Positions 9,333-29,348 of a stretch of DNA of 64,000 nucleotides are shown here, piece by piece (the stretch's first letter is position 1; each line of letters begins with the position of its first letter). The stretch is taken from positions 8,097,626 through 8,161,625 of the forward strand of contig OY759599.1 in NCBI GenBank assembly GCA_963662465.1, in the 5' to 3' direction. Under the pieces are notes generated by a model. It ran no database searches. It saw only the letters and a list, made by a program, of their open reading frames with translations, and was not told where the DNA came from. This stretch comes from Desulfatiglandales bacterium (lineage in GTDB: Bacteria > Desulfobacterota > DSM-4660 > Desulfatiglandales > Desulfatiglandaceae). A program made the position numbers and the translations under genes.

Positions 9333-9379
9333 CAAGATTAAAAACAAAAACAATCCTGCAAAATCCTGTAAATCCTGTC
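9313..9379. repeat. 9-mer inverted-repeat hairpin (ACAGGATTA x3 ... AATCCTGTA x3)
   Basis: Left arm 9313-9339, right arm 9352-9379; the right-arm triplet occurs 15 times between 9.3 and 26.5 kb. Confidence 0.9.
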
Positions 9380-9398
9380 TAAAAAAAGAGAGGAAAAA

Positions 9399-10490: not shown

Positions 10491-10539
10491 TGGTCATTAA
10501 CTCAAAACCCATAACCCAACACTCAAAACTGATTTTCCA

Positions 10540-10606
10540 CCCATGCATCCATATCTCAGCGGTGAAGACCAAAAGCGAATCGCGGTCAGTATTGGAGATG
10601 GGCGAT
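10540..10606 (+). pseudogene. Duplicated alternative 3' end of the DegT gene
   Basis: Encodes PMHPYLSGEDQKRIAVSIGDGR versus PMHPYLSLEDQKRIASAIEDG in the intact gene. Confidence 0.8.
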
Positions 10607-10667
10607 GTAACTGTTTAACTGGGGTTGGCAACGTCTCCCATTATACAAGATTTGACAACGATCCTTA

Positions 10668-10696
10668 TTGACTAAAATAGCCGATATGTCTATAAT
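10668..10696 (+). promoter_or_regulatory. Sigma70 promoter of the TA cassette
   Basis: TTGACT-17 bp-TATAAT upstream of 10733. Confidence 0.7.
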
Positions 10697-10732
10697 GCCT
10701 ACATTAGCTAACAATCAATTGGGGGATATAGT

Positions 10733-10975
10733 ATGGACGTTACGGCGACAGAGTTGAAAAACAGATTGGGGAGATACCTGGATACGGCCGAGAGGGTTCC
10801 TGTCATTGTCAAAAAGTCAGGAAGGAAAAAGTCAGTCATCATATCCCATAGAATGTATGAGAGATTCCTTGAAATGGAGGACACATACTGGGCTCAGAAG
10901 GCTCGCGAAGCTGAAGAGGGGGGCTACTTGGGTGAGATTGAAACCAAACGCCTTTTGAGCGAAGAAGATGTATAA
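10733..10975 (+). CDS. Phd/YefM-family antitoxin
   Basis: VTATELKNRLGRYLD...PVIV.K.GR motif; overlaps the downstream RelE gene. Confidence 0.85.
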   Translation: MDVTATELKNRLGRYLDTAERVPVIVKKSGRKKSVIISHRMYERFLEMEDTYWAQKAREAEEGGYLGEIETKRLLSEEDV

Positions 10976-11243
10976 GCTGGATATCACCAAGGCTGCCGGA
11001 AAATTTGTCAAAAAATTGGATGCAAAACAATACCGTCAAGTATTATCAAAAATTCTGGAACTGAGAGAAGAGGCCGATCCCCATGACTCAAAGCAACTCA
11101 TCGGCAGCCCTGAGTACAGACGAGTGGATATAGGTGAGTATCGTGTCATCTATAGAGTTGAAAAAGATACTGTTAAAATCGCTGTCGTTGGCAAACGAAA
11201 CGATGACGATGTTTACAGAAGATTTAAAAGAAAAGACAAATGA
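10968..11243 (+). CDS. RelE/ParE-family toxin
   Basis: YRRVDIGEYRVIY...VVGKR motif. Confidence 0.88.
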   Translation: MYKLDITKAAGKFVKKLDAKQYRQVLSKILELREEADPHDSKQLIGSPEYRRVDIGEYRVIYRVEKDTVKIAVVGKRNDDDVYRRFKRKDK

Positions 11244-11488
11244 GTGTAATAAGGGAAATTAGAGAAGTTCTTGATGGGTCGATTTCTATCGATATGCCGG
11301 CAAGCCTGCTTCATCGGAAAGTGGAGGTGATTGTTATTCCTTTGGATGAAATCTCCAGTGATGATGATTTTAATGGGGAGGATACCTGGCCTTACGGATT
11401 TTTTGAGAAAACGGTCGGTTGCATGGCTGATGATCCTATTCGAAGGCCAGATCAAGGGGAGTACGAACAGCGGGAGCTTCTTGCATGA
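11240..11488 (+). CDS. Putative antitoxin of the downstream VapC
   Basis: Small acidic protein ending RPDQGEYEQRE; overlaps the PIN gene; homologous to 19131-19395. Confidence 0.7.
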   Translation: MSVIREIREVLDGSISIDMPASLLHRKVEVIVIPLDEISSDDDFNGEDTWPYGFFEKTVGCMADDPIRRPDQGEYEQRELLA

Positions 11489-11898
11489 GATACCTTCTCG
11501 ACACGAATGTGTGTATTTCGTATTTGAATAACCCTCAGTCACCCGTTCGTTTTCATCTCGAGCGCTCGGAACCAAGCTCCATATTTGTATGTTCTGTCGT
11601 GAAGGCCGAGCTTTATTTCGGCGTAATGAATAGTCAGTGGTCAGAGAAGAATCTGGAAAAGCTGGAAGTTTTTCTGAAGCCGCTTGGCTCTTTTCCCTTT
11701 GATGACTTGGCAGCTAAACATTATGGGGAAATACGAGCGAAGTTATCAAAAGCAGGCAAAGTGATAGGACCTCACGATATTCAAATCGCCGCTATTGGGC
11801 TCTGCCGGGAGGCGATTCTTGTAACACATAATACACGAGAGTTTTCGCGTGTGGAAGGCCTGGTTGTTGAAGACTGGGAATTGGAAAAACGCAGTTGA
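11485..11898 (+). CDS. vapC: VapC PIN-domain toxin
   Basis: YLLDTNVCI, ELYFG, D.QIAA and LVTHNTREF motifs. Confidence 0.92.
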   Translation: MRYLLDTNVCISYLNNPQSPVRFHLERSEPSSIFVCSVVKAELYFGVMNSQWSEKNLEKLEVFLKPLGSFPFDDLAAKHYGEIRAKLSKAGKVIGPHDIQIAAIGLCREAILVTHNTREFSRVEGLVVEDWELEKRS

Positions 11899-12110
11899 GT
11901 ACCAACCCCCATTACACTCGCCGCTTGGATGGATGAAGCCGTGAAGCACAGGAACAAACATCGTGAGGTCAAGTGGACGGAAAGCATCGCGGCCTGCCCA
12001 GTTAAATCTGGTTGTTCTATTTAACCGGGGTGGGAAGCAAGGAGTTCGTGGAAAAGATCAAAGAAAAGCTGAAGGCCTTATTTCTGAGTCGTAAGGTGGA
12101 AGGGGAAGAA
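11899..12110 (+). pseudogene. C-terminal remnant of a REP-associated tyrosine transposase (RAYT-like), split by a hairpin insert
   Basis: Encodes KWTESIA|VGSKEFVEKIKEKL with a 38-bp palindromic insert at about 11992-12029; family call from motif recall only. Confidence 0.5.
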
Positions 12111-12116
12111 TGCCGA

Positions 12117-12173
12117 TATCTCACAGAGGAAGACCAAAAGAAAATTGCGGCTGCTATCGGGGATAGACCATAG
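12117..12173 (+). pseudogene. Divergent DegT 3'-end copy (also at 14635-14691)
   Basis: YLTEEDQKKIAAAIGDRP* followed by CCATAGC-type repeats. Confidence 0.7.
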
Positions 12174-12312
12174 CCGAAAGCCTTAACCCATAGCCTGTTT
12201 TTCGTGCCCATAGCCTATCGCCCCATAGCCTAATACCTTTTACACCTTGGTTTTCTTCGTTACCTTCTTTAAAAATATGTAAAGATCTAAATATCCCTTT
12301 TGTGAGGTAGAG

Positions 12313-12537
12313 ATGAAATTTAGAGCGGTCATAAAGAAATCAGAGGGCTGGTGGATTGGCTGGCTGGTCGATTTGCCAGGTGTAAATGCTCAGGAAAAGA
12401 CACAAAAGGAACTGCTTGATTCTTTAAGAATCGGCGCTGAAGATATGCTTTCGATGGAAGTCCCTTTTGAGCCCGAAGCGCAAATGACGACCGTTATGGT
12501 CAAAGATCCGGCATGGGCGGAAAACCAGACTGCCTAA
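12313..12537 (+). CDS. hicB: HicB-family antitoxin (orphan)
   Basis: WWIGW..DLPGVNAQEKT..EL motif. Confidence 0.8.
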   Translation: MKFRAVIKKSEGWWIGWLVDLPGVNAQEKTQKELLDSLRIGAEDMLSMEVPFEPEAQMTTVMVKDPAWAENQTA

Positions 12538-12689
12538 AATTGCAACAGCTATCGTCCCAACCTGTAGCCCATGGCCCATCGCCTAATACCTTTTCATTCT
12601 TCGTTTTCTTCGTTACCTTCTGTAAAAAGCCCTTAACAAAAATCCTGTAAAATCCTGTAAATCCTGTCTAAAAAAAAACCGGAGACCCC

Positions 12690-14447
12690 TTGATGCAACA
12701 ACACCAACCCAATGCAACCATTGACCACGCCTCCTCTCCTCTCGACGTGTCCACCTCCCCCAGCGGAGAGGAGTTCCCTTTGCCGCGGCCCGAGGACTAT
12801 AACCAGGAATTCAAGAGACTCAAGCAACTGGTGAATGAACAACGCCTCAAAGGACGGGAAATTGTCGTCGTCATGGGTGTCGGGTTTGTGGGCGCTGTCA
12901 TGGCGGGCGTGGTTGCCGACTCCGTGGATGGGGAAACAGGGGAATCCAGGTACTTCGTCATCGGTATGCAGCGGCCTTCTCCCCGATCTTTTTGGAAAAT
13001 CCCGTACCTAAACCGGGGCATTTCCCCTGTGGAGGCTGAAGACCCGGATGTGGCGCCCTTGATTCAACGGTGTGTACAGGACAAGCAGACCCTCACAGCC
13101 ACCTTTACCTACGACGCTCTGTCACTTGCTGATGTGGTGGTAGTGGATGTTCAGTGCGATTACCACAAGGAGAGCCTGGGGAATGTTCGTCAGGGACATG
13201 CCGACATAGAGGCGCTGGAAGAGAGTCTCAAGATTATCGGAGAGAAGATTGAAGCGCACTGTCTGGTCTTGATCGAAACGACCGTTCCTCCCGGCACCAC
13301 GGAGTATGTGGCTTTCCCCATCATAAAAAGGGCCTTTGAAAAACGCGGCCTTTTCCAGAAACCGACCTCCGACCTCCGTCCTCTGACCTCCGACCTCCGT
13401 CCTCCGACCTCCGACCTCCGAAAAACGGCGGAGCCGCTTTTAGCCCATTCCTTTGAGCGGGTCATGCCTGGGCGGGAATACGTGGCCTCCATCCGCGACT
13501 TCTGGCGGGTTTGCTCCGGTATCAACCAAGAATCCAGGGAGCGGGTGGAACTGTTTTTGTCCAACATCCTGAATGTAGATAAGTTCCCCCTGACCGTGCT
13601 GGACCGGCCCATTGAAAGCGAGACCTGCAAGATCGTAGAGAACTCCTACAGGGCCACCATTCTGGCATTCATGGACGAATGGAGCCGGTTTTCCGAGAAA
13701 AACGGGGTTGACCTCATCAAGGTCGTGAAGGCCATCAAGGTGCGACCCACGCACGCCAACATGATTTTCCCCGGTCCCGGCATTGGGGGATACTGCCTTC
13801 CGAAAGACGGAGGTCTTGGCGTCTGGGCCTATCATACGCTTATGGGGTTTGAAGATGACATCTTCAAGATCACCCCCATGGCCATCGACATCAACGATAC
13901 CCGTGCCCTGCATGTGGCCCAGTTGGTGCGTGATGCGCTGCGGAATATGGGACGGATAGTGGCCGCCTCCAAAATTGCGGTATTGGGCGCCTCCTACCGG
14001 GAAGATGTGGGCGACACGCGTTACAGCGGTTCAGAGATGGTCGTCCGGAAACTCACGGAGATGGGCGCGGATGTGGTGGTTCATGATCCGTATGTCAGCC
14101 ACTGGTGGGAGCTGGAAAAGCAGGATACCTATCCCTCTCCCGGCCATTCGTGGTCGCGGTTTTTCAGGAACCAGGAAAAGTTGAAGGAAACCGTTGTCCA
14201 AGATGACCTGAATAAGACCCTGTCCGGAGCCGATGCCGTTATTTTGGCGGTGAGACATCAGGCTTATCTCAATCTGGACCCGGATGGGGTGGTGGAAATG
14301 ATCGGTGGTCCGGCGGCTGTGGTGGACTGCTTCGGGGTGTTGGACGATGTGGCCATCAAGCGGTATTTCGAGTTGGGCTGCGAGGTCAAGGGACTTGGGC
14401 GGGGGCATATTAAGCGGATTAAGGATGCGGTCAGAGCTTCTGCGTAG
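12690..14447 (+). CDS. UDP-glucose/GDP-mannose dehydrogenase-family nucleotide-sugar dehydrogenase
   Basis: GVGFVG, ETTVPPGTT, KIVENSYR and GGYCLPKD motifs; in-frame heptamer repeat at about 13360-13420. Confidence 0.9.
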   Translation: MMQQHQPNATIDHASSPLDVSTSPSGEEFPLPRPEDYNQEFKRLKQLVNEQRLKGREIVVVMGVGFVGAVMAGVVADSVDGETGESRYFVIGMQRPSPRSFWKIPYLNRGISPVEAEDPDVAPLIQRCVQDKQTLTATFTYDALSLADVVVVDVQCDYHKESLGNVRQGHADIEALEESLKIIGEKIEAHCLVLIETTVPPGTTEYVAFPIIKRAFEKRGLFQKPTSDLRPLTSDLRPPTSDLRKTAEPLLAHSFERVMPGREYVASIRDFWRVCSGINQESRERVELFLSNILNVDKFPLTVLDRPIESETCKIVENSYRATILAFMDEWSRFSEKNGVDLIKVVKAIKVRPTHANMIFPGPGIGGYCLPKDGGLGVWAYHTLMGFEDDIFKITPMAIDINDTRALHVAQLVRDALRNMGRIVAASKIAVLGASYREDVGDTRYSGSEMVVRKLTEMGADVVVHDPYVSHWWELEKQDTYPSPGHSWSRFFRNQEKLKETVVQDDLNKTLSGADAVILAVRHQAYLNLDPDGVVEMIGGPAAVVDCFGVLDDVAIKRYFELGCEVKGLGRGHIKRIKDAVRASA

Positions 14448-14888
14448 GGAACTATAAATGTAAGAGTTGGCAACTCAAAACTCAAAACCCAAAACTCAAA
14501 ACTCAAAACCCAAAACCATCTTTGCTCTCTTCGTTACCTTCTGTAAAAAGCCCTTAAAAAAAATCCTGTAAAATCCTGTTAATCCTGTCAAAAAAAGAGT
14601 TATGGAATTATGAACAATGTCCCCCATTCCCCTCTATCTCACAGAGGATGACCAAAAGAAAATTGCGGCTGCTATCGGGGATAGACCATAGCCTAATACC
14701 TATCGCCCATAGGGGGAGGAATATGAGGGAAACCAGTGGCATTATGAACTGGGAGAGAAAGGGGCTGCTTACAGTGCCAATTTTGCCCCCAAAAATGTAC
14801 TTCTAAGCCCAGAAAACGCATATATTTTGGACTTAAATATTGAATAATCAATAGGATAGTTTGGTCAGACCCCAGACTGCAGCATGAC

Positions 14889-15743
14889 ATGAGCGCAGAA
14901 AATAAAATTCAGTTATTTCAAAACCAAAGCGTAAGAACACATTGGGATGAAGAACAAGAAAAATGGTTTTTTTCTATTGTGGATGTTATTGCAATTTTAA
15001 CGGAGCAAAAAGATTATCAAGGAGCAAGAAATTACTGGAAAGTATTAAAACATAGACTTGTAAAAGAAGGAAACGAAACGGTTACAAATTGTAACCGTTT
15101 GAAAATGATTGCCAAAGATGGCAAAATGCGAATGACTGATGTAGCTGATACTCAACAGCTATTACGTCTTATCCAATCTGTTCCATCGCCGAAAGCAGAG
15201 CCTTTTAAAATCTGGTTGGCAAAAGTAGGTGCACAGCGGATAGACGAAATAGAGGATCCCGAACTATCTTTTGAACGTGCTATGGAAACCTACCTTGCAA
15301 AAGGATACTCCAGGGAGTGGATAAACCAACGCCTGAAAAGTATTGAAGTTAGAAAAGAACTAACAGACGAATGGCAAGAAAGAGGAATGAAACAAGGCTT
15401 GGAATACGCCATTTTAACCAATGAACTCACTCAAGCCTGGGCCGGAAAAAATGTAAAAGAATACAAGAAATACAAAGGGTTGAAAAAGGAAAACTTGCGA
15501 GATAATATGAGCAACCTTGAACTGGTTTTGAATATGCTTGCAGAAGCTTCTACAGCAGAAATATCGAAAGAAAAGATACCAAAAGGATTAGAAGAAAATA
15601 AGGATATTGCTCGTAAAGGTGGTAATGCTGCTAAAAAAGCAAGATTGGAGATTGAAAAACAAACAGGGAAACCAGTCGTAACAACTAAAAATGCAAACAA
15701 CCTTTTAGACAAACCTAATCATGAAAATATTGAAAATGAGTAA
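14889..15743 (+). CDS. BRO-N domain / phage antirepressor-like protein
   Basis: WFFSIVDVI..LT...RNYWKVLK, RLIQSVPSPKAEPFK.WLA motifs; low-GC cassette. Confidence 0.85.
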   Translation: MSAENKIQLFQNQSVRTHWDEEQEKWFFSIVDVIAILTEQKDYQGARNYWKVLKHRLVKEGNETVTNCNRLKMIAKDGKMRMTDVADTQQLLRLIQSVPSPKAEPFKIWLAKVGAQRIDEIEDPELSFERAMETYLAKGYSREWINQRLKSIEVRKELTDEWQERGMKQGLEYAILTNELTQAWAGKNVKEYKKYKGLKKENLRDNMSNLELVLNMLAEASTAEISKEKIPKGLEENKDIARKGGNAAKKARLEIEKQTGKPVVTTKNANNLLDKPNHENIENE

Positions 15744-15837
15744 ATCATTAGGCTTTTACAGCTTAGTTTTCTTCCTTAACTTCTGTAAAAAGCCCGAAGC
15801 AAACATCCTGATAATCCTGTAAATCCTGTCAAAAAAA

Positions 15838-16615
15838 ATGGAGCCGGTTTTCCGAGAAAAACGGGGTTGACCTCATCAAGGTTGTGAAGGCCATCAAGGT
15901 GCGACCCACGCACGCCAACATGATTTTCCCCGGCCCGGGCATTGGGGGATACTGCCTTCCGAAAGACGGAGGTCTTGGCGTCTGGGCCTATCACACCCTG
16001 ATGGGGTTTGAAGATGACATCTTCAAAATCACCCCCATGGCCATCGACATCAACGATACCCGTGCCCTGCATGTGGCCCAGTTGGTGCGTGATGCGCTGC
16101 GGAATATGGGACGGATAGTGGCCGCCTCCAAAATTGCGGTATTGGGCGCTTCCTACCGGGAAGATGTGGGCGACACGCGTTACAGCGGTTCAGAGATGGT
16201 CGTCCGGAAACTCACGGAGATGGGCGCGGATGTGGTGGTTCATGATCCGTATGTCAGCCACTGGTGGGAGTTGGAAAAGCAGGATACCTATCCCTCTCCC
16301 GGCCATTCGTGGTCCCGGTTTTTCAGGAACCAGGACAAACTGAAGGAAATCGCCGTTCAGGATGACCTGAATAAGACCCTGTCTGGAGCCGATGCCATTA
16401 TTTTGGCGGTGCGACACCGGGCCTATCTTGATCTGGACCCGGATGGGGTAGTGGAAATGATCGGGGGTCCGGCGGCCGTGGTGGATTGTTTCGGGGTGTT
16501 GGACGATGCGGGGATCAAGCGGTATTTCGAGTTGGGTTGTGAAGTGAAAGGCCTGGGTCGAGGCCACGTGAAACGGATTAAAGACAAGGTGCGCAGTGCT
16601 TTTCAGAGCCGATAA
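15838..16615 (+). pseudogene. 3'-half duplicate of the nucleotide-sugar dehydrogenase
   Basis: Near-identical to about 13679-14440; starts right after a 9-mer triplet and A-run; different last residues. Confidence 0.85.
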
Positions 16616-16682
16616 AAAATAAACCCGCTCACCCCTTTACACTATCACGGTAATCGGAAAATCGAAAGAAACGCATGAATGC

Positions 16683-17321
16683 ATGGGCGTCCCTCTGCCC
16701 AAAAACTCAAAACTCAAAACCCAAAACCCAAACCCAACCCCCAACGACTACTTCGCTCACGAAACCGCGGTAATTGACGATGACGTTACTATCGGAAAAG
16801 GGACGAAAATCTGGCATTTCTCCCATATCCTGTCCAATTCTAATCTGGGTGAAAACTGCAACATCGGCCAGAATGTGGTGATCGGCCCGGATGTCACCAT
16901 CGGCAAAGGGTGCAAGATCCAGAACAATGTCTCCGTCTACAAAGGCGTCACCCTGGAAGACGGTGTCTTCTGCGGCCCTTCCATGGTCTTTACCAACATC
17001 TACAACCCCCGGGCGGAAATTCGCAAAATGGACCAGGTCCGCCCCACCCTTGTGAAACACGGCGCCACCCTGGGCGCCAACTGTACCATCGTATGCGGAA
17101 CCACCATCGGGGAATACGGCTTTGTGGGTGCCGGCGCCGTCATCACCCACAATGTCCCCAACCACGCCCTCATGCTGGGCAACCCCGCCCGCCGTGTCGG
17201 TTGGATGTGTCAATGCGGAGAACGTCTGACCGACGACCTCGACTGCCTCACGTGCGAAAAAACCTATGAAAAAAATGAAGAAGGCCTAAGAGAAATAATT
17301 AGACAGGATCAACAGGATTAA
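16683..17321 (+). CDS. Stand-alone second copy of the WbpD-like N-acetyltransferase domain
   Basis: Closely similar to the C-terminal domain of 7680-9332; N-terminus ([12 protein letters not shown]) encoded by heptamer repeats. Confidence 0.75.
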
Positions 17322-17387
17322 CAAGATAAAATATTAAAAAAATCCTGTAAAATCCTGTTAATCCTGTCAAATAAAAACAGAGGAAAA

Positions 17388-17471
17388 ATGCAATTCATCG
17401 ATCTCAAAACCCAACAAACCAGAATCCGCCAGGCCTTTGACTACGGCCGGTACATAATGGACCCGGAATAG
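17388..17471 (+). pseudogene. DegT 5'-start fragment (another at 22159-22195)
   Basis: MQFIDLKTQQTRIRQAFDYGRYIMDPE* after the same hairpin and RBS as the intact gene. Confidence 0.75.
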
Positions 17472-17601
17472 GCATTAAGAATGAAAACAGGGTTCAAAGA
17501 TTTAAAAGTTTGGCAAAACGTGAGGTCCGACCCCAAGCTCCTAAATGATATAGAAGTATAGAATTGCAAACCGACGTTCCCCATTGTACATTGGAGAGGA
17601 T

Positions 17602-17778
17602 ATGTCCAAAGAGATTGGAAAACACTTTTCGAATATGTCATTAGTTTTTCTCGGCGGTGTTTTTGTTCAATCTGCTTTGAAGGAAGACTGGAGGATAGCA
17701 CTTGTAGGACTTGGATTTAGCGTATTTTTCACATGTTTAGGCGCTGCAATCTTAGCAAAACAAAAGGAGAAAGAATAA
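17602..17778 (+). CDS. Small two-TM membrane protein
   Basis: RBS GGAGAGGA; two hydrophobic segments; basic C-terminal tail. Confidence 0.6.
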   Translation: MSKEIGKHFSNMSLVFLGGVFVQSALKEDWRIALVGLGFSVFFTCLGAAILAKQKEKE

Positions 17779-17867
17779 TGCTTGAGGTATTTATAGCGGC
17801 CGGGATAGCTTTCGGGATTCTGGGTATATTTCTTTACAAACTTCTTACCAAAGAAAAGAAAACCTAG
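17778..17867 (+). CDS. 29-aa single-TM peptide
   Basis: TAATG coupling to the upstream gene with AGGAG upstream; MLEVFIAAGIAFGILGIFLYKLLTKEKKT. Confidence 0.5.
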   Translation: MLEVFIAAGIAFGILGIFLYKLLTKEKKT

Positions 17868-18142
17868 CGGCATATCCAAGATGCCGCAGCTCGGAGTTCT
17901 GTAGATTCGGAACGTCCCTTTTTTACCCATTCGAAAGCTTTTTCTTAAAGGCCCCATTTTGACCCCAAAAAAAGGTCTTCCAAGGTCTTAAAACAGTCTG
18001 TTTTTGAGCTGTATTGCAACCCTATCAGTTTGTTACTGAGGCCCTCAAGACCCCTGAAAAAATTAGCCAGGGTTTACAAGGTTAACGAGATAAAATAATA
18101 AAAAAATCCTGCAAAATCCTGTTAATCCTGTCAAAAAAAAAA

Positions 18143-18438
18143 GGTCCCGGTTTTTCAGGAACCAGGACAAACTGAAGGAAATCTCAGTTCAGGATGACCT
18201 GAATAAGACCTTGTCCGGAGCCGATGCCGTTATTTTGGCGGTGCGACACCGGGCCTATCTTGATCTGGACCCGGATGGGGTGGTGGAAATGATCGGTGGT
18301 CCGGCGGCTGTGGTGGACTGCTTCGGTTTCTTGGACGATGCAGCCATCAAGCGGTATTTTGAGTTGGGTTGTGAGGTTAAAGGTCTTGGCCGGGGGCATA
18401 TTAAGCGGATTAAGGATGCGGTCAGAGCTTCTGCGTAG
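18143..18438 (+). pseudogene. 3' fragment of the dehydrogenase
   Basis: Starts GGTCCCGGTTTTTCAGG after a 9-mer triplet and A-run; ends IKDAVRASA*. Confidence 0.85.
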
Positions 18439-18561
18439 GGAACTATAAGCTGTATTTTTTTCCTTAACTCAAAACCCAAAACCCAAAACCTGGGCGTCCC
18501 ACTGCCCATAATGAGAATTGCTGCTTGACATCCGCCGCTCCTTGGAATATATGTTCGCACC

Positions 18562-18945: not shown

Positions 18946-19130
18946 ACGGAAGACTTAAAACGTAAAACGTAAAACCTTTTCCCCACTTTCGTAACTCAAG
19001 GGGCGGAGCTGTCTGAAGCGGCAAGCCGCGGATTTAAGTTTTACGTTTTAGGGGGATAACCTTACAAACCTGCCAACGTCCCATTACGTCCCCCTAATTA
19101 AAGGGCGTTATGCTATTAGGATGAAGGAGG

Positions 19131-19726
19131 TTGCAGATGGAGACACAAACATCAAAAACAAAAACCTCTTCTTTGGAAGCCATTGTTCGCAAAACCATAC
19201 AGAGCAATTTGTTGGAAGGGATTATCGAAATTCCTAACAAACTTAGGAATCGTTTGGTGGAGGTGATTCTTTTGCCTGTTGTTAGTGAAAAACACAACGG
19301 TCAAAGTAATATGAAGTCAGGTTCCTCTCTGAAGCGCTTCGCAGGTGCATGGTCCGGGGAACAACTCGTCAGGGAAGATCAGGGAAACTATGAGGTCCGT
19401 TTCTTTCAGCTGATCCAGCAACAATTTGGCTTTGTTCGGTTGTAAAAGCCGAATTGTTCTTCGGTGCTCTGAAAAGTGTTCGAATCAAAGAAAACCTTCG
19501 GCTTTTGGATGAATTGTTTGCAAATTTCGATTCTGTTTTTTTTGACGACGATGCTGCTCGAAAATACGGCGAGATCCGTTCGGATCTTGCTCGGAAGGGT
19601 ACTCCAATTGGTCCGAACGATTTGATGATTGCGGCTATAGCTTCAGTGCATGAGGCAGTACTTGTTACGCATAACACCAGAGAATTTGCGCGAGTAATAG
19701 GCCTCACAATTGAAGACTGGGAATAG
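19131..19726 (+). pseudogene. Antitoxin-VapC pair fused by an internal deletion
   Basis: Antitoxin ends REDQGNYEVR; the PIN remnant lacks the N-terminal LLDTN but keeps IGPNDLMIAA and LVTHNTREF. Confidence 0.75.
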
Positions 19727-19835
19727 CCAAAAAGAGCTGATCTGTATCCAAAGGAAGCAAGAAGGGAATGAGATAATCTGCACTCACGCCACAAAAGCCC
19801 TTTTGATTCCCATGCTGCACGATGCTAGGAAAAAA

Positions 19836-19915
19836 GGTGTAGGGTATAGGGTTTAAGGTATAAGGCGAACCCCGCACCTTGTTCCCTACACCTTAAACCT
19901 TAAACCCTGAACCCT
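19836..19915. repeat. Heptamer inverted hairpin (AGGGTAT-like left arm / ACCTTAA-like right arm)
   Basis: GGTGTAGGGTATAGGGTTTAAGGTATAAGG ... CCCTACACCTTAAACCTTAAACCCTGAACCC. Confidence 0.75.
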
Positions 19916-20001
19916 GCGTAAAGAAAGCCTGACCCCAGCAATAGAAAAAAAAAGATAAATCCTTGAAATCCTGTTAATCCTGTCAAAAAAAAAGGCTGAA
20001 A

Positions 20002-20217
20002 ATGAAAACTACCCAAGCCAACATCGCCTTCATCGGTGCCGGTGCTGTGGTCACACGAAACGCCCCGGCCCACGCCCTCATGCTCGGCAACCCCGCTCGC
20101 AGAACGGGCTGGATGTGCCGGTGCGGAGAACGCTTGACCGACGACCTGGACTGCCTTGCCTGCGGCAAAACCTATGAAAAAAACGAAGACGGCTTAAAAG
20201 AAATTAGACAGGATTAA
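20002..20217 (+). pseudogene. Internally deleted wbpB-wbpD fusion (5' start joined to 3' end)
   Basis: MKTTQANIAFIGAG resembles the WbpB start [20 protein letters not shown]...IRQD matches the WbpD end. Confidence 0.8.
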
Positions 20218-20369
20218 CAGGATCAACAAGATTAAAAACAAGAAAACAATCCTGCAAAATTCTGTTAATCCTGTCAGAAAACAGTTTTTTGTTGAAAAAA
20301 CCTTTCAGATGTGTATAAGAACTTGCCTTCTTTGTAAAGCATCCGGTAATATTTGATAATCTTCTTGAG

Positions 20370-20903
20370 ATGATGGGGTCGAATGCTGAAATTGTCTATG
20401 TTGATAAAATCGTTCCCGATGCTTACCATGGAACTGAGCTTAAAACAGCTCTAAAAATACTCAGAGGAAAGAACTTTATTCCGAGCAGAGGGAAAGAAAC
20501 ATATTTAGGGGATGGCGTATATTTTTACGAAAGCTCATTATGGCACGCCAGACAATGGTGTCAAAGGCGTTTTCCTGGTTTAAGACATGGTGTAATTTGT
20601 GCTGCAATCAATTTAAGGAGGTGTTTGGACCTCCATAATTACGAACACCGCAAGCTTCTTCAGCAAGTAAGATTAAACTTGGAAATGAAAGGTTACAAAA
20701 AATTAACCGACACTTTTTTGATAAACTTCTGCGCTACCAACATAAAAGAATTTGACACCGTTAGATGGACATACACCGCAACTGGCGGCAAATATGGCAA
20801 AATATATCCAGGATCAAGAATAGATGATTTTTCACAGCTCATAATTTGCGTAAGAAACCAGGAATCAATTCTCAGCATTGAACTGGCTGATGAGGGGGGC
20901 TGA
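20370..20903 (+). CDS. Putative ADP-ribosyltransferase-fold toxin (CmdT-like)
   Basis: AYHGT, YLGDGVYFY and terminal QLIICVR motifs; first gene of a triad ending in a SecB-like gene. Confidence 0.6.
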   Translation: MMGSNAEIVYVDKIVPDAYHGTELKTALKILRGKNFIPSRGKETYLGDGVYFYESSLWHARQWCQRRFPGLRHGVICAAINLRRCLDLHNYEHRKLLQQVRLNLEMKGYKKLTDTFLINFCATNIKEFDTVRWTYTATGGKYGKIYPGSRIDDFSQLIICVRNQESILSIELADEGG

Positions 20904-20905
20904 AA

Positions 20906-21178
20906 ATGGAAAATGAGTTAAGAGATTTCAGGCAAAAAATAGTTCAGTATTTTTCCGAAATAAGCGATGACCAACTCCGTAAAGATATGGAAAAGGCCGG
21001 ATATGAGGTTTATAAAAATGTAGATGTCCATATTTTGAGCGATGCTGTTTCTGAAGAAGAATTTACATTTTCGGTAAAGAGCAGAACAGCCCGGACTGCC
21101 TTCAACAAAGTAGACCTTAGGTTTCATAACGTTTTTACGCCAGACAACCATCCATATAATTTCAAGATTGCTGCTTAA
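20906..21178 (+). CDS. Putative chaperone-addicted antitoxin (CmdA-like)
   Basis: 90 aa; aromatic-rich C-terminal tail ending -IAA; lies between the toxin and the SecB-like gene. Confidence 0.55.
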   Translation: MENELRDFRQKIVQYFSEISDDQLRKDMEKAGYEVYKNVDVHILSDAVSEEEFTFSVKSRTARTAFNKVDLRFHNVFTPDNHPYNFKIAA

Positions 21179-21193
21179 AGGCGCCTTCATAAA

Positions 21194-21658
21194 ATGATGA
21201 CAAGTCAGGCACAATTCAAACACCATCCCATCTGTTTGAGGGATGTGCGGGTTATAGAACTATACATCAGAGGAAATATCCATCCTGATGAAATCAACGA
21301 AGAGCAAGCAGCGAGGAACTCATCAATTAACGTTGGTCATTCTGAATACGACACGGCAAACCATCGTATAGTTGTGGGTCTCACTTTAGAACTCAAAGAG
21401 GGTGAGGAAAAGGAAAGTGAATTGCCCTATTTCCTCAAGGTTGAATTAGCAGCCTTGTTCGAAGTTGATGAGTCTAAGTTCGACAAAGAACACATTTATG
21501 ATTGGGCCAGAAGGAACGCGCCATTTATTCTTTTTCCATACCTAAGAGAAGAAGCTTATGCTCTCACAATAAGGGCTGGTTATAAGCCGTTAATTCTTCC
21601 TCTTCTTGAAGTTCCTACATTTCAATCCGAAAGAATGGCTCCAACAACTGGACTGTGA
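21194..21658 (+). CDS. SecB-like chaperone
   Basis: NAPFILFPYLRE...LT.RAGY.PLILP matches the SecB C-terminal signature. Confidence 0.8.
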   Translation: MMTSQAQFKHHPICLRDVRVIELYIRGNIHPDEINEEQAARNSSINVGHSEYDTANHRIVVGLTLELKEGEEKESELPYFLKVELAALFEVDESKFDKEHIYDWARRNAPFILFPYLREEAYALTIRAGYKPLILPLLEVPTFQSERMAPTTGL

Positions 21659-21713
21659 GCAATTCTTTTCGCAAAAGAAATCCTGTAAAATCCTGTTAAT
21701 CCTGTCTAAAAAA

Positions 21714-22112
21714 ATGGAACAGGAAGACCTAACCCACAAAATCATCGGCTGTGCCTACAAAGTATATAACACCCTCGGCTTCGGTTTCCTTGAAAGCATC
21801 TATCACAAAGCCATGCTGATCGAACTTGCCGAAGTCGGGATGGTTGCCGAATCAGAAAAACCCCTGAAAGTCACTTACAGAGACAAAATAATTGGTGAAT
21901 TTTCAATAGACATATTCGTTGAAAATGAAATCATCGTGGAACTCAAATCCGTTGAGCATCTGGTGAAAGCCCATGAGGTCCAGGTCGTCAACTACCTCAC
22001 AGCCTCAAAAAAGGAAATCGGTCTCCTCATCAACTTCGGACCCACCGGAGTCAAAGTTAAAAGAAAATACAGAAAAAGTCTTGCACAGTATTTACAGGCT
22101 CAACCAGATTAA
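21714..22112 (+). CDS. GxxExxY protein (PD-(D/E)XK-like)
   Basis: GFLESIY, DIFVE..IIVELK, Q..NYL and GLLINFG motifs; flanked by 9-mer triplets at 21679 and 22123. Confidence 0.9.
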   Translation: MEQEDLTHKIIGCAYKVYNTLGFGFLESIYHKAMLIELAEVGMVAESEKPLKVTYRDKIIGEFSIDIFVENEIIVELKSVEHLVKAHEVQVVNYLTASKKEIGLLINFGPTGVKVKRKYRKSLAQYLQAQPD

Positions 22113-22323
22113 AACCAAAAAAAATCCTGTAAAATCCTGTTAATCCTGTCAAAAACAAATGCACTTCATAGATTTATCAGCCCAACAACAAAACACTTAG
22201 ACAGGATTTACAGAATCAACAAGATTAAAAACAAAAAAAATCCTGCAAAATCCTGTTAATCCTGTCTAAAATGTTTTTCACAAAATACAACAGAGCCAAG
22301 AAAACCTTTTCCCTTCGTTACCT

Positions 22324-22402
22324 TTACAGTCCCGAGCAATCAGGAATACTCCGTACCGCAGGTCAAGATGTTACTGAAAGAAGTTGAAGTGGGAATAGGG
22401 GG
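22324..22402 (+). pseudogene. HicA-like toxin 3' remnant
   Basis: TVPSNQEYSVPQVKMLLKEVE. Confidence 0.45.
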
Positions 22403-22447
22403 CAAAACCTTTGCGAACACATCGAGGAGGGCCGGATCATACAGTCT

Positions 22448-23674
22448 GTGAACTGGTACTTGCTTCCTTTTCTGGAATGGCTTGCACAACACTGGGATCC
22501 CCTTCTGCATGAACAGAGACTTCCGATTAAGCACAGCGATGCCGGCAATACCGCATGGGCTTCTTTTCAGAGCCACTTCCAGCCCCCCATCGGTTACGAT
22601 CACGATCAGGCCTCAGAATGGGATACGAAGTGGGATGCCTGGATGACTCGGCACAGTCTCCTAATGGCCAGGGCCGGAGGACTTTTTCCAGATCTTTTCA
22701 TTCGGCGGTATCGCGATCAAATAGAACTATCATGGGGAGAGATCTTGCACCCCGGCGCGCCCCGGGGGTTCCGTTTTTGCGCTCCTGCCGGGTTCGTACG
22801 GCTACCGCCTTCCACGGTTTCTCAACCCCTTTTCCAATTGTTGCTGGGATCCGCCCAATTCTTAATGGGGCGATGCGTCGATTCACAGAGGATAAAAACC
22901 CTCACCCAGGCAATTCAGAATATTCCGCGGGCTGATCAAACACCGCGTCTGGCCTGGCTGGCGGGTTTGGACCTGCAAATCGGGAAAGCCATAGGCCGGT
23001 GGAATCGATTTGCGGAGAAAGTCTCCGGTACGCTGGGCGATGCGGGCAAGCGCCTTTTTTCAGAGAGCCAATGTCTAGAAAATATCGTTATAACAGGTTC
23101 TTGCGATGCAGCCATGATGTTCGGTTCTCTTGCGCCGACCATAGAGGAAGAAGATGTGTTGGCGATTGCTCGAAAGATGATCGAAGCTGCGGAGCAGGAA
23201 CAGCATGACGAATTATTGGAGCAAATGACAAGGCCAATTCAGTTGGATGACGATCCATCGCCCCCGTGGGAACAAGGCTATAATCTGGCCATGCCCTTAT
23301 GCGAGGACATGGCCGTCAGCCAAACCGGCAGTTCTGTTGATGTGGCAAACGTGCTAAAGGGATTGGGTATTCATTTTGGGGAGATTGCCTTGACAGACAG
23401 CGAGATCCGGGCAATTAGCCTTGCAGGCCCTCATCATCACCCGACCATCCTGCTTAATATGAATAACCCTACAAATCAGTACGATTCAGGCCGTCGATTC
23501 ACCTTTGCCCATGAACTGTGTCATCTCCTTTATGACCGAACATACGGTATGAAACTGGCGATGGCGTCAGGCCCGTGGGCGCCCAGGGATATCGAAAGAC
23601 GCGCCAATGCCTTTGCGGCCATGTTTATTATGCCCACCCATTTTAACTTTCATGAAATCATTGCAAACTCCTGA
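22448..23674 (+). CDS. ImmA/IrrE-family metallopeptidase-domain protein (ends possibly truncated)
   Basis: RRFTFAHELCHL...E.RANAFAA.F.MP motif near the C-terminus. Confidence 0.75.
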   Translation: MNWYLLPFLEWLAQHWDPLLHEQRLPIKHSDAGNTAWASFQSHFQPPIGYDHDQASEWDTKWDAWMTRHSLLMARAGGLFPDLFIRRYRDQIELSWGEILHPGAPRGFRFCAPAGFVRLPPSTVSQPLFQLLLGSAQFLMGRCVDSQRIKTLTQAIQNIPRADQTPRLAWLAGLDLQIGKAIGRWNRFAEKVSGTLGDAGKRLFSESQCLENIVITGSCDAAMMFGSLAPTIEEEDVLAIARKMIEAAEQEQHDELLEQMTRPIQLDDDPSPPWEQGYNLAMPLCEDMAVSQTGSSVDVANVLKGLGIHFGEIALTDSEIRAISLAGPHHHPTILLNMNNPTNQYDSGRRFTFAHELCHLLYDRTYGMKLAMASGPWAPRDIERRANAFAAMFIMPTHFNFHEIIANS

Positions 23675-23755
23675 GTTCTCAGACTTAATCCATGATCGAG
23701 AAGGGAATAAGCAGCTTCAATTTTAGACGGTTGCTCGGCGTTGAGGGAAGGGTGG

Positions 23756-24035
23756 TTTTGGGTTTTGGGTTTTGGGTTTTGAGTTTTGGGTTTTAGGTTT
23801 TGGGTTTTGGGTTTTGAGTTTTGGGTTTTGGGTTTTGAGTTTTGGGTTTTGGGTTTTTCAGTCAATGAACTTCTTGTTTTTTGTGACAGAAAACCTGGAA
23901 ATAAGGTACTAGGCTTTTTCCGAGACTACGCTCGGAAAAAGTGGCTTCTTGGAAGCCCTCAAGGATACAACTAGCTGTATTTTTTTCCTTAACTCAAAAC
24001 CCAAAACCCAAAACCCAAAACCCAACACCCAACAC
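23756..24035. repeat. Inverted heptamer arms (TTTTG(G/A)G run ... AAAACCC run) around a loop of about 130 bp
   Basis: Left arm 23756-23857, right arm 23990-24035; the loop start resembles 56303-56346. Confidence 0.85.
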
Positions 24036-24115
24036 CATCTTTGCTCTCTTCCTTACCTTCTGTAAAAAGCCCTAAAAAAAATCCTGTAAAATCCTGTAAA
24101 TCCTGTCTAAAAAAA

Positions 24116-24411
24116 GGTCCCGGTTTTTCAGGAACCAGGACAAACTGAAGGAAACCGCCGTTCAGGATGACCTGAATAAGACCCTGTCCGGAGCCGATGC
24201 CATTATTTTGGCGGTGCAACACCGGGCCTATCTTGAACTGGACCCGGCTTCTGTGGTTGAAATGACCGGCAACCCTGCCGCCATTGTGGACTGTTTCGGC
24301 ATTCTGAACGATGCGGCCATCAAGCGCTACTTTGAACTGGGCTGTGAGGTCAAAGGTCTCGGCCGGGGACATGTGAAACGAATCAAGGATGCGGTCAGAG
24401 ATTCTGCGTAG
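24116..24411 (+). pseudogene. Divergent 3' fragment of the dehydrogenase
   Basis: Same start junction as 18143, but a different allele (ELDPASVVEMTGNPAAIVDCFGILND). Confidence 0.85.
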
Positions 24412-24571
24412 GAAAGCATAACAAAAATAAATCCTAAAAATCCTGTTAATCCTGTCTGAAAAAGAGTTATGGAATTATGGAACAACGCCCCCCATTCCTA
24501 CGGGGTGCCAAAAAAACGAAAGGTTCACGAGTAAAGAACCAAGCACTTAGAAAGATGGAGGACTGTGTGTA

Positions 24572-24778
24572 ATGGCAAAATTAACACTAGAATATTGGGA
24601 AGACGATGGATGGCTTGTCGGCCGCCTGATAGAGGTCCCCGGCATTTTTAGTCAAGGCGAAACAATGGAAGACCTTAAGGAAAACATCCAGGATGCTTAT
24701 AAGTTAATGTTGGAAAGTGAACCTATGGAATCTTTCCCTAAACCACGTAATCGGATTCCCTTTGAGGTAAGGGTTTGA
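24572..24778 (+). CDS. hicB: HicB-family antitoxin
   Basis: WLVG...EVPGIFSQGET.E.L.ENI.DA motif. Confidence 0.85.
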   Translation: MAKLTLEYWEDDGWLVGRLIEVPGIFSQGETMEDLKENIQDAYKLMLESEPMESFPKPRNRIPFEVRV

Positions 24779-24960
24779 AGCGAAGAGAATTCATCCGTAA
24801 ATTGTCAAATGAAGGATGTTCTTTATATCGTCGAGGCTCCAGGCATGACATCTATTTGAATTCCCAAACCGGTAAAAAAGCACCAGTTCCAAGGCATCAA
24901 GAAATCAAGAATTCTTTATGCGCACTTATCAGGAACCAACTTGGACTCTTGAAAGAATAA
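24775..24960 (+). CDS. hicA: HicA-family toxin
   Basis: G.RHDIY.N....APVPRH.EI motif. Confidence 0.88.
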   Translation: MKRREFIRKLSNEGCSLYRRGSRHDIYLNSQTGKKAPVPRHQEIKNSLCALIRNQLGLLKE

Positions 24961-25063
24961 TACATGCCATCATCTATCACCCCTAACCTAACCTTATTGG
25001 AGGTAAGTCAAGCAGAGACCTTTATATTAGCAAGGATGTCCCACATTGCGAACTTTCAAGCGC

Positions 25064-25268
25064 CCTCAAGGCCAAAGACATCCCCTCTGTCGCCTATTAT
25101 GCGGTACCGCTTCATCTGCAAGGCGCCTTTGCCGATCTGGGTTATAAACCCGGCGACTTTCCCGTGGCTGAGCATGTTGCGGCCAAGTGCCTTAGCCTGC
25201 CGATGCATCCGTATCTCAGCGGTGAAGACCAAAAGCGAATCGCGGTCAGTATTGGAGATGGGCGATAG
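25064..25268 (+). pseudogene. Divergent 3' fragment of the DegT gene
   Basis: LKAKDIPSVAYYAVPLHLQG...IAVSIGDGR*. Confidence 0.8.
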
Positions 25269-25414
25269 GTACAGATAGATGTAAGAGTTGGCAACTCAAA
25301 ACCCAAAACCCAAAACCCAACACCATCTTTGCTCTCTTCCTTACCTTCTGTAAAAAGCCCTTAAAAAAAATCCTGTAAAATCCTGTAAATCCTGTCTAAA
25401 AAACCGGAGAACCC

Positions 25415-26329
25415 TTGATGCAACAAAAACAACCCAATGCAACCATTAACAACGCCTCCTCTCCTCTCGGCGTGTCCACCTCCCCCAGCGGAGAGGAATT
25501 CCCTTTACCACGGCCCGAGGACTATAACCAGGAATTCAAGAGACTCAAGAAACTGGTGAATGAACAACGGCTCAAGGGCCGGGAAATAGTTGTTGTCATG
25601 GGTGTCGGGTTTGTAGGCGCTGTTATGGCGGGTGTGGTTGCCGACTCAGTGAATCGGGAAACGGGGGAATCCAGGTATTTCGTCATCGGCATGCAGCGGC
25701 CTTCTCCCCGATCTTTCTGGAAAATCCCGTACCTCAACCGGGGCATTGCCCCCGTGGAAGCCGAGGACCCGGATGTGGCGCCCTTGATTCAACGGTGTGT
25801 ACAGGACAAGCAGACCCTCACAGCCACCTTTACCTACGACGCCCTGTCACTTGCGGATGTGGTGGTAGTGGATGTTCAGTGCGATTACCACAAGGAGAGC
25901 CTGGGGAATGTTCGTCAGGGACATGCCGACATCGAGGCGCTGGAAGAGAGTCTCAAGATTATCGGAGAGAAGATTGAACCGCACTGTCTGGTCTTGATCG
26001 AAACGACCGTTCCTCCCGGCACCACGGAGTATGTGGCATACCCCATCATAAAAAGGGCCTTTGAAGCGCGCGGGCTTTTTCAGATATCAGATGTCGGAGA
26101 TCAGCGATCAGAGCAGGTAAATCCCGAATCAGAGCCCAAATCTCAGTCCTCCTTGCCCCGTGAAATTCACGTCAGTGACGAACACAGCGAATTTCACCGG
26201 GGTGACCTCCGTCCTCCGACGTCTGACCTCTGTCCTCACCCGTGCCTTGCATGTGGCCCAGTTGGTGCGCGATGCGCTGCGGAATATGGGACGGATAGTG
26301 GCTGCTTCCAAAATTATTCCAGCGCTTGA
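25415..26329 (+). pseudogene. 5' duplicate of the dehydrogenase, broken at the repeat linker
   Basis: Near-identical to 12690-13355; different linker (heptamers plus hairpin), then an out-of-frame jump to the equivalent of about 13900. Confidence 0.85.
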
Positions 26330-26479
26330 ATCGGAGAAGCCGGCGAAAGATAGATGTAAGAGTTGGCAACCCAAAACTCAAAACTCAAAACCCAACACCA
26401 TCTTTGCTCTCTTCCTTACCTTCTGTAAAAAGCCCTTAAAAAAAATCCTGTAAAATCCTGTTAATCCTGTCAAAAAAAA

Positions 26480-26628
26480 GGTCCCGGTTTTTCAGGAACC
26501 AGGACAAACTGAAGGAAACCGCCGTTCAGGATGACCTGAATAAGACCCTGTCCGGAGCTGATGCCGTTATTTTGGCGGTGAGGCATCGGGCCTATCTTGA
26601 TCTGGACCCGGATGGGGTGGTGGAAATG
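26480..26628 (+). pseudogene. Internal dehydrogenase fragment
   Basis: Third use of the 9-mer/A-run/GGTCCCGG junction. Confidence 0.8.
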
Positions 26629-26681
26629 CCCACCTATTTTTGAAGATGATTTTGGCGAAACGCTGTGTTAGCCGAAGATTC

Positions 26682-29321: not shown

Positions 29322-29348
29322 CTGGTTTACGGGAATACTACTTTTAAT

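Follow-up and report, generated by a model that had tools for sequence, protein, structure and literature searches.

Surface-polysaccharide loci are among the fastest-changing parts of bacterial genomes, and the entry of new pieces into them is usually inferred from flanking homology alone. The locus described here raises the question of how many pieces of one sugar operon can come to lie beside the intact operon genes, in frame and separated by small unrelated cassettes. It lies in a stretch of 64,000 nucleotides from a Desulfatiglandales bacterium (assembly GCA_963662465.1, contig OY759599.1, positions 8,097,626 to 8,161,625), which we call the window and which forms the final 64 kb of one 8.16-Mb contig without N; positions below are those of the window unless the contig is named. 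The resident genes encode a fused oxidoreductase and acetyltransferase, a DegT-family aminotransferase and a nucleotide-sugar dehydrogenase. We propose that positions 10540-26628 probably form a pile in which allelic pieces of this single amino-sugar operon of three genes alternate with small cassettes, toxin-antitoxin pairs among them. Recombination at sites made of rows of the word ATCCTGT has, we think with similar probability, brought the modules from homologous loci, namely two paralogous loci and at least one other species. The junctions of this array are legible: a 27-nt repeat precedes every gene and cassette, identity switches at the repeat, and the leftovers of alleles are in frame.

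Partial gene copies were located by tblastn of the three resident proteins against the window and by DNA repeat comparison. Together these give 13 partial copies of the three operon genes in 10540-26628, all on the + strand, each in one frame and none of the 13 with an internal stop codon: four extra DegT ends, two DegT starts, five dehydrogenase pieces and two acetyltransferase ends. The DegT ends are of two types. Type 1 comprises 10540-10606 (codons 343-363; DNA repeats and tblastn) and 25050-25266 (codons 293-363; tblastn; 79% amino-acid identity to the resident), which are 97% alike over 67 nt, and type 2 comprises 12105-12193 and 14617-14712 (both from DNA repeats, the second after an ATG and a GTCCCCCATT motif), which are 91% alike. 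DegT starts are found at 17388-17468 (about 35 codons, with DNA homology as far as 17431; DNA repeats and tblastn) and at 22160-22188 (about 10 codons, after which the left arm of the next site takes over). Among the dehydrogenase pieces, 15836-16615 (codons 329-583; tblastn) has its own tail, KVRSAFQSR, and matches the resident at 95-100% for the greater part of its extent and at 62-90% in the final ~300 nt; 18143-18442 and 24116-24415 (codons 488-584 in each case; alignment, for the latter also DNA repeats) both abut a site directly; 25415-26329 joins codons 1-242 to codons 403-428; and 26480-26628 (codons 488-536; like the preceding piece from tblastn) ends just ahead of the next gene. The tails KVRSAFQSR, AVRASA and AVRDSA were read in an alignment of dehydrogenase ends, the last of them belonging to copy 24116, the most diverged dehydrogenase piece (81% to the resident). 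The acetyltransferase is represented by 16710-17321 (codons 348-550; tblastn) and by 20002-20217 (71 aa; sequence comparison). A preliminary description, made from the letters of the sequence, had listed the four DegT ends of two types, the two DegT starts, the five dehydrogenase pieces with their three tails and two wbpD ends with synonymous changes; tblastn and DNA repeats bear this list out, with the correction that 20002-20217 is an oxidoreductase-acetyltransferase fusion.

That fusion records how redundant copies are lost. Its first ~11 codons are those of the oxidoreductase start and its remainder is the last 73 codons of the acetyltransferase, joined in frame at codon 478. The join lies between two short stretches that resemble each other: AACATCGCC.TCATCGG..CCGG, from the start of the gene, is found again near codon 478 and provides microhomology at the deletion junction. 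An in-frame deletion of this microhomology type gutted one redundant gene copy here. At 22160 a DegT start enters, after its ~10 codons, the left arm of the site normally placed behind the fusion gene. Both joints are deletions within formerly longer operon copies.

Are these pieces decaying relics, or parts of genes that were working when they were acquired? We measured five fragment/resident pairs, four of which gave a dN/dS ratio (0.06-0.12): the acetyltransferase piece (203 codons) has a dN/dS of 0.10 at a dS of 0.86, the dehydrogenase piece of 255 codons 0.10 at 0.29, the dehydrogenase 5' piece 0.12 at 0.21, and the short acetyltransferase end 0.06 at 2.2. The fifth pair, for a DegT piece, is saturated in dS, so that no ratio can be computed (Sd 39.0, Nd 19.0). 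Across the 10 copies in the genome that cover the final ~240 nt of the dehydrogenase, all 45 pairs have a dN/dS of 0.05-0.31, with dS up to 0.97. Since the frames are open and dN/dS is near 0.1, the pieces diverged as parts of working genes and derive from functional alleles. The preliminary description had supposed divergent functional donor alleles and had named dN/dS beforehand as the check, and this supposition fits the ratios obtained. An old in-place tandem duplication of the operon with later divergence and decay would explain why the pieces are co-oriented, why their order can be read as repeated units and why a neighbouring island, island B, shares the first part of the array. At a dS of 0.3-0.9, however, it predicts dN/dS near 1, stops and frameshifts, none of which is seen in the 13 fragments, and the intact gene of another species matches one fragment at 100%, the resident gene matching it at 79%. 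We regard this explanation as disfavoured and very improbable.

The modules of the array are all bounded by one kind of site. It consists of three ATCCTGT words (two in 3 cases) at 9-10-nt spacing, followed by an A run, and it occurs 15 times in 9353-26471, always on the + strand, with last words starting at 9372, 12661, 14582, 15823, 17361, 18125, 19977, 20268, 21699, 22143, 22259, 24100, 24449, 25389 and 26464. After the A run comes a ribosome site and the start of DegT, of the dehydrogenase or of a cassette gene, or else an internal position of the dehydrogenase. The 27-nt pattern has 12 matches in the window and 0 in 100 shuffles. At 6 of the 15 sites there is also an inverted left arm of ACAGGAT words (near 9311, 17300, 18064, 20205, 22082 and 22198, + strand), and three such foldback forms, tested as single strands, reach -14.5 to -16.8 kcal/mol (z -6.5 to -8.9); for three half-sites tested, folding showed no comparable advantage over shuffles (z 0.29, -0.06 and -1.94). 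We found no MITE-type full-length element between the inverted arms, and an Rfam scan of the whole window gave 0 matches at gathering thresholds.

Across the genome there are 32 triple rows, 28 on the + strand and 4 on the - strand, and with one exception (at 1.36 Mb) they are confined to three zones of the contig: 50-110 kb, 7.00-7.09 Mb (locus C) and the window. Allowing up to 2 mismatches, the 27-mer is present in 5 of 61 related genomes; its exact form occurs in at least 124 metagenome stretches of widely varied composition and in 2 viral contigs (L192 and L193), one of which has two copies in opposite orientation 226 nt apart. Because it is present in such varied metagenome stretches and in viral contigs, the 27-mer must be conserved far beyond this lineage; in the metagenome contexts it is often a foldback of two rows, or a row beside a hairpin. 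Other short elements share these zones. A second junction motif, CAACGTCCCCCATTAC, often after GAATAGTGGAATAGTGG or AGCAACAAAAGTGCCAA, lies at 10632, 14618 and 24486 on the + strand and at 52309 on the - strand, with many more occurrences at 6.998-7.108 Mb and 37-57 kb of the contig; it clusters in the zones of the ATCCTGT site, stands ahead of cassette open reading frames (ORFs) and of two pieces of DegT end, and it also flanks the Phd/ParE-PIN block described below. A hairpin, CCCCGTGAAAC ... GTTTCACTGGGG, is inserted within or beside some sites (contig positions 52854, 7038169 and 7083971 in this genome; 9612 and 12490 in L013) and also lies directly upstream of a RAYT-like Y1 gene at 7038220, and a related hairpin is found at 26160-26215, in the linker of the dehydrogenase 5' fragment.

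Where do the modules come from? We searched this genome and 105 genomes of the family for donors. Within the genome, locus B (47.7-58.7 kb of the contig) is 94-96% identical to 5374-11583 and 12671-16259, and locus C contains intact gene copies, many fragments and a large field of toxin-antitoxin pairs. Island B, to which locus B belongs, holds ~1.15 kb where the window holds 10.4 kb (16259-26702), so most of the pile was gained here, or lost in island B, after the islands split. In G010, the genome of a different species in this genus, the fusion gene (546 aa) and the DegT gene (364 aa) are both intact, with three cassettes between them, including the two that we call c8 and c9, each ending in its own word row; the same fusion gene/site/DegT junction is empty in the window and in metagenome contig L089.

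A detailed comparison concerns 20025-22154. This segment, which takes in the last 195 nt of the fusion gene, two cassettes and the sequence up to the next site, matches G010 at 98.9%. Block by block, the gene end (20035-20204) is 84% identical to locus C and 100% to G010, the site behind it (20205-20284) 100% to both, cassette c8 (1388 nt) 99.5% to both, and the next site (21673-21713) 97.6% to locus C and 100% to G010; cassette c9 (21714-22073) is unrelated in locus C and 95.6% identical to G010, and beyond the third site the window is unrelated to either. Identity between the loci switches exactly at the sites. The 195-nt gene end is 100% identical to G010, 86% to locus C and 79% to the resident; because the fragment and its surroundings match G010 at 98.9-100% and the resident at 79%, it seems to have arrived with its cassettes from another allele. 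A contig of run X21, which is labelled as another organism, spans 20025-21707 with 7 differences. Further comparisons are in keeping with this: 18175-19029 is 96.5% identical to G010; homology to locus C also ends at sites at 12673, 15846 and 25394; a module with a GxxExxY gene stands behind a site with differing left neighbours at 21699 and, on the contig, at 7021910 and 7062702; and one left neighbour stands before differing modules at 21699 and at contig position 7068784. Beyond G010, the genes of other species are at most 74% identical to the dehydrogenase end. A congener has similar remnants: a dehydrogenase end, and an acetyltransferase piece of 206 aa that lies amid toxin-antitoxin pairs.

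The preliminary description had pictured repeated uptake of segments running from a gene end through repeat and cargo to a gene start, carried in from other strains by homology arms. The segment 20025-22154 conforms to the first part of this picture, although at least one fragment was trimmed after arrival. Homology arms are not needed, as c8 stands in locus C behind a gene end of 84% identity with the break exactly at the repeat, and the donors need not be other strains, as two paralogous loci of the same genome hold near-identical segments.

We propose the following course of events. No other identical stretches shared by the alleles, which elsewhere are 80-90% alike, are as long as the sites, so crossing-over would take place inside these sites of 27-80 nt. 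Because the same site precedes every gene and cassette, non-allelic pairing would be possible, and incoming segments could be added beside the resident copy instead of replacing it. Later deletions would take away the greater part of the redundant enzyme genes, whose ends would stay beside the cassettes. Exchange might be started by RecA alone or by a site-directed enzyme, with the RAYT-like Y1 protein and the GxxExxY nuclease as candidates. That copies do exchange sequence is seen from the mosaic identity along full genes: the resident dehydrogenase is 98-100% identical to copies over 13.7-14.1 kb and then 62-90% identical.

A pile of near-alike alleles is also what an assembler might produce by joining strain variants of one locus through shared repeats, the more so as the sites and junction repeats are of a kind that confuses assemblers and many alternative site joints are present among short contigs. 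The contig, however, is a single one of 8.16 Mb without N, and runs X19 and X20, which come from one sample that may have been the source of the assembly, yield short contigs agreeing with the array-specific segments 17342-18117, 18448-19172, 22282-23134 and 24373-25241 with 0-2 differences. Depth in the array-specific parts is 16.5-25.6, against 20.6 in the single-copy flank, and segments shared with loci B and C reach 42-100; the uneven coverage that the preliminary description had named as a sign of mis-assembly is not what the array-specific parts display. Two junction groups, 17431 and 24415 through 25050, are bridged by contigs with at least 31 nt on both sides, whereas among the contigs compared no such bridge spans the junctions at 15837, 16615-16710, 18143 and 20035; the congener has the same kinds of fragment. 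Misassembly, partly tested in this way, is unlikely, and we give an artefact of this sort very little probability.

Several points weigh against our account of stacked alleles. Homology also ends away from sites, at 11583, 12906 and 19029, and no donor closer than 87% was found, among the genomes searched, for the pieces at 16710, 24116 and 25050 or for both type-2 DegT ends. The remnants, taken in order, may be grouped as a repeating series of fusion gene, DegT and dehydrogenase, a reading that is not independent evidence; the long-range order itself comes from the assembly alone, the confirming contigs being short and possibly from the same sample. In a tree of dehydrogenase ends (242 columns) 11 of the 15 inner branches are open and the sole supported pair inside the group is the resident with the locus C gene (98/91), so we judged the relatedness of these ends by pairwise identities instead of the tree. 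Toxin-antitoxin pairs may shield neighbouring remnants from deletion, a possibility weakened by a Photorhabdus study which, in its accessible part, reports that such pairs do not preserve neighbourhoods (PMC13617665). A further point concerns codon 488 (the equivalent of 14152): seven dehydrogenase ends, of which the window holds three and locus C four, share this first base and abut a site there; the seven copies differ at a dN/dS of 0.1-0.3, without stops. Simple arrival followed by decay does not predict this, for which either a site-specific cut that recurs or repeated renewal through exchange with intact genes is needed.

The homology arms of the preliminary description would correspond to Campbell-type integration, in which a circle carrying a site, a gene end and cargo would enter by a single crossover in the resident gene end, leaving an intact hybrid gene and a displaced end that starts at the circle junction. 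The seven shared starts, with one more dehydrogenase end of locus C and the G010 copy starting 32 nt further on, suit this scheme, which would also keep the arms free of stops. So does the last 275 nt of the dehydrogenase, where fragments are 94.6% alike in the first 50 nt against 82% for full genes, and 83% alike in the last 75 nt against 97% for full genes, the reciprocal pattern predicted for crossovers of an element-borne arm with varied residents. That pattern, however, comes from 3 full genes and 5 non-independent fragments, and the full genes share their downstream DNA at 94-97% in any case. Moreover, no circle or excision joint was seen, other fragments break elsewhere (codons 329, 348 and 293), and in locus C a cassette was exchanged without arms. 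We consider integration of this kind improbable, and continue to favour stacking of allelic segments by recombination at the sites.

The mosaic identity of the resident dehydrogenase and its copies, together with the presence of partial, promoterless copies downstream of intact genes and of G-rich heptamer arrays (GGGTTTT on the - strand) adjoining several of them, is also reminiscent of programmed variation, in which silent partial copies serve as gene-conversion donors. In pilS and vls systems such copies feed the expressed gene of a surface-exposed antigen. The targets here, by contrast, would be cytoplasmic nucleotide-sugar enzymes (a dehydrogenase, an aminotransferase and an oxidoreductase-acetyltransferase), and the differences are mostly synonymous, so that conversion would change little protein. 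The copies are, in addition, interleaved with selfish cassettes, with similar disorder at a second and a third locus. The silent reservoir that the preliminary description offered as an alternative agrees with the evidence of exchange, but nothing indicates a programmed system, and we rate it the least probable explanation of all. As an observation on its own, the telomere-like heptamer arrays (CCCAAAA/CTCAAAA; GGGTTTT on the other strand) follow several gene ends, at 14472-14517, 16699-16744, 18466-18490, 23985-24036 and 25293-25325, and one array of 130 nt is oppositely oriented, at 23740-23871.

The wider setting of the array is a pair of islands at the tmRNA gene. The window lies inside an island of ~109 kb that starts at the 3' end of this gene (contig 8081765-8082118; ARAGORN). 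A second ssrA 3' end, at contig position 29147, has the same 20 nt plus CCACCA and identical downstream DNA, and begins island B; homology between the two islands begins at this ssrA 3'-end repeat, so a direct repeat of the tmRNA 3' end is present at the island border. The island flanks are 99.3-99.99% identical (the left flanks 99.99% over 12 kb), the operon regions ~95% identical, and the centre (window 27.8-49.9 kb) gave no megablast match between the two islands. A tandem duplication of the whole island was rejected, contig positions 1-29200 having no match in 95-160 kb of the contig, and the two neighbouring islands are separate insertions at ssrA and not one tandem repeat. Near-identical flanks around a diverged centre are the usual picture of allelic polysaccharide loci, seen here in neighbouring islands. 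Downstream of the array, 28179-36601 encodes a set of enzymes unusual for a sugar cluster, comprising a C-C bond lyase TIM-barrel protein, an aldo/keto reductase, an MmgE/PrpD protein, a TPP enzyme, an ATP-grasp protein and both fumarase subunits; its product may be an acid-decorated sugar.

The resident genes themselves, all on the + strand and assigned by Pfam, are the fusion of a Gfo/Idh/MocA oxidoreductase with a hexapeptide acetyltransferase (7680-9332, 550 aa, WbpB/WbpD-like), the DegT-family aminotransferase (9399-10490, 363 aa, WbpE-like; PF01041, E 1.5e-116) and the nucleotide-sugar dehydrogenase (12693-14447, 584 aa, WbpA/WecC-like). None of the three proteins reaches an NCBIfam equivalog or subfamily cut-off, the dehydrogenase scoring 179.9 bits against TIGR03026, under its cut-off of 189.8, and the Wbp names and the putative role in a UDP-2,3-diacetamido sugar pathway are given by analogy from domain content. 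Two of the proteins contain in-frame tandem heptad linkers, the dehydrogenase at 13360-13428 and the fusion protein at ~8720-8750 between its two domains; the heptad units are CCGACCT/CCGTCCT and CCGACCA, and they account for the extra length of the dehydrogenase.

The cassettes between the gene pieces are all co-oriented (+ strand) and share the layout of leader, ORF, A run and word row; their contents were assigned by Pfam. They include a Phd/YefM-ParE pair with a pair made of an 82-aa ORF and a PIN (VapC-like) protein (10733-11898), a Bro-N domain protein (14889-15743), a winged-helix protein with a broken PIN pair (18562-19726), cassette c8 with 177-aa and 90-aa ORFs and a SecB-like protein (20285-21672), cassette c9 (21714-22112), a gene of the GxxExxY / PDDEXK_3 nuclease family with a word row on one side and a foldback site on the other, an ImmA/IrrE-type peptidase-domain protein of 408 aa (22448-23674) and a HicB-HicA pair (24572-24960). 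The c9 protein scores 139.5 bits against TIGR04256 (cut-off 35), and the ImmA/IrrE-type protein matches an NCBIfam antitoxin family under its cut-off. Relatives of the 177-aa c8 protein in named genomes were inspected at 10 loci, and the 9 beyond G010 all lie without a nearby site or operon genes.

Do these cassettes have machinery of their own? A dedicated system, integron-like but not an integron, would have its word rows cut or bound by a GxxExxY or RAYT-like protein, with gene ends travelling along by co-conversion or in imprecise events. The co-oriented cassette units agree with this, as does their insertion precisely at the row (the empty junction of the window compared with the three cassettes of G010), the recurrence of c8 in three contexts with breaks at sites, and the occurrence of the exact 27-mer in distant metagenomes and viruses. 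Inverted rows of 7-nt words (among them CACAGAG, CGCAGAG, CACGAAA and ACAGGAT) frame the GxxExxY genes themselves: of 12 loci from 10 genomes, 6 have such rows on both sides, 4 have them on a single side and 2 have none. In the present genome, 5 of 10 GxxExxY matches fall inside the three site zones and 2 more within 3 kb. Each of the five site-holding genomes (5/5) carries at least two GxxExxY genes, compared with 32 of the other 56 of 61 genomes that carry any. The second candidate is a RAYT-like Y1_Tnp + DnaA_C protein in locus C (contig 7013342-7014424), whose gene starts right behind an ATCCTGA/ATCCTGT row; it scores 71.9 bits against NF047646, whose cut-off is 80. This fusion of a Y1 (IS200-like) domain to the DnaA C-terminal helix-turn-helix recurs at about 20 other places in the genome, and we take the site word to resemble a DnaA box.

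Against such machinery, a GxxExxY-like gene, counted with two query proteins, lies within 3 kb of the exact 27-mer at only 8 of 81 loci (7 contigs), and the link between gene and site is so far one of co-location. The RAYT-like protein fails as a site partner by co-location, being present at 0 of 81 27-mer loci and 0 of 13 relatives' loci; action in trans is possible, so this count is not decisive. Plain homologous recombination at 27-80 identical bases yields the same products, a site joined to internal codons (329 and 488) is not expected of clean cassettes, and we know of no enzyme activity for the site. Among the literature matches listed for the GxxExxY family names, the accessible parts hold nothing on repeats. 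On balance we regard a dedicated cassette system as possible, if unlikely. Its broadest form, in which the rows would be sites of an undescribed integrase-free system spread across phyla, driven by the GxxExxY nuclease or the RAYT-like Y1 protein, loading toxin-antitoxin modules and allelic segments into surface-polysaccharide operons and moving them between species, is less likely again, and we put it forward tentatively. The reading that we prefer, in which repeats guide the stacking of cassettes and allelic operon segments within a polysaccharide locus, is a variant of known processes.

How, then, does the array compare with these known systems? Integrons consist of co-oriented small cassettes, many of them toxin-antitoxin pairs, each closed by a conserved and partly palindromic end site, with the same cassette found in different contexts. 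The array shares the co-oriented cassettes ending in a site and the same cassette in several contexts, but no integron integrase is adjacent to it: across the whole genome, five matches to TIGR02249 exceed the cut-off (contig positions 3287696, 4425408, 4981289, 6133965 and 6792755), none of them beside the array, and the nearest partial match (7978907-7979563; 256.5 bits, cut-off 265) is truncated and lies ~118 kb upstream. The attC site is an imperfect palindrome with RYYYAAC / GTTRRRY cores and a cassette boundary inside GTT. In the array sites, by contrast, conservation runs at least 12 nt (ATCCTGTC and the A run) past the sole GTT, which is GTA in 5 of 15 sites, and the second arm is absent in 9 of 15. 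We rejected an integron reading on these grounds, the missing adjacent integrase and sites that are not attC-like. With REP/REPIN-RAYT systems the array shares foldback repeats of inverted arms and, in locus C, a Y1 transposase-like gene behind a site; it differs in that the site is confined to three zones and not dispersed through the genome, the arms are rows of a 7-nt word, and the Y1 protein falls below the family cut-off and has a DnaA-type helix-turn-helix. Salmonella O-antigen and Enterobacteriales polysaccharide loci reportedly vary allelically between conserved flanks, recombine alleles and keep leftover remnants. The two islands resemble them in their 99.3-99.99% identical flanks around a diverged centre; the array departs from them in having 13 remnants in 16 kb, clean open frames and an intergenic repeat at every junction.

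If the repeat is the target of the nuclease genes that it frames, the array would point to cassette exchange outside the integron paradigm and to a function for the GxxExxY family; if only RecA is involved, it would be a clear natural example of short intergenic repeats turning allelic replacement into stacking. The gene for Ssn, a GIY-YIG single-strand nuclease, is, according to the accessible text, associated with many short NTS/SRM repeats of its own around other genes, with a proposed effect on DNA exchange (PMC11893778). Here too a small nuclease-family gene is associated with a repeat, the GxxExxY word rows, across genomes; its product, however, is a PD-(D/E)XK protein (PF13366 / TIGR04256) and not a GIY-YIG one, and is tied to the repeat by co-location only. 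In Streptococcus pneumoniae transformation, as far as the accessible text describes it, a fragment of which part recurs in the chromosome pairs with a non-allelic repeat and gives tandem duplications bounded by repeats (PMC3784515). Such merodiploidy would add material beside the resident copy, as in the array, but there the repeats are insertion sequence (IS) remnants and 100-900 kb of the cell's own DNA is duplicated, while the array has repeats of 27-80 nt, units of 0.1-3 kb and added DNA that is a diverged allele. Integron arrays and nuclease-plus-repeat pairs (Ssn/NTS) are the closest described architectures, the array being a member of neither, and the closest described mechanism would be transformation-triggered tandem duplication by alternative repeat pairing.

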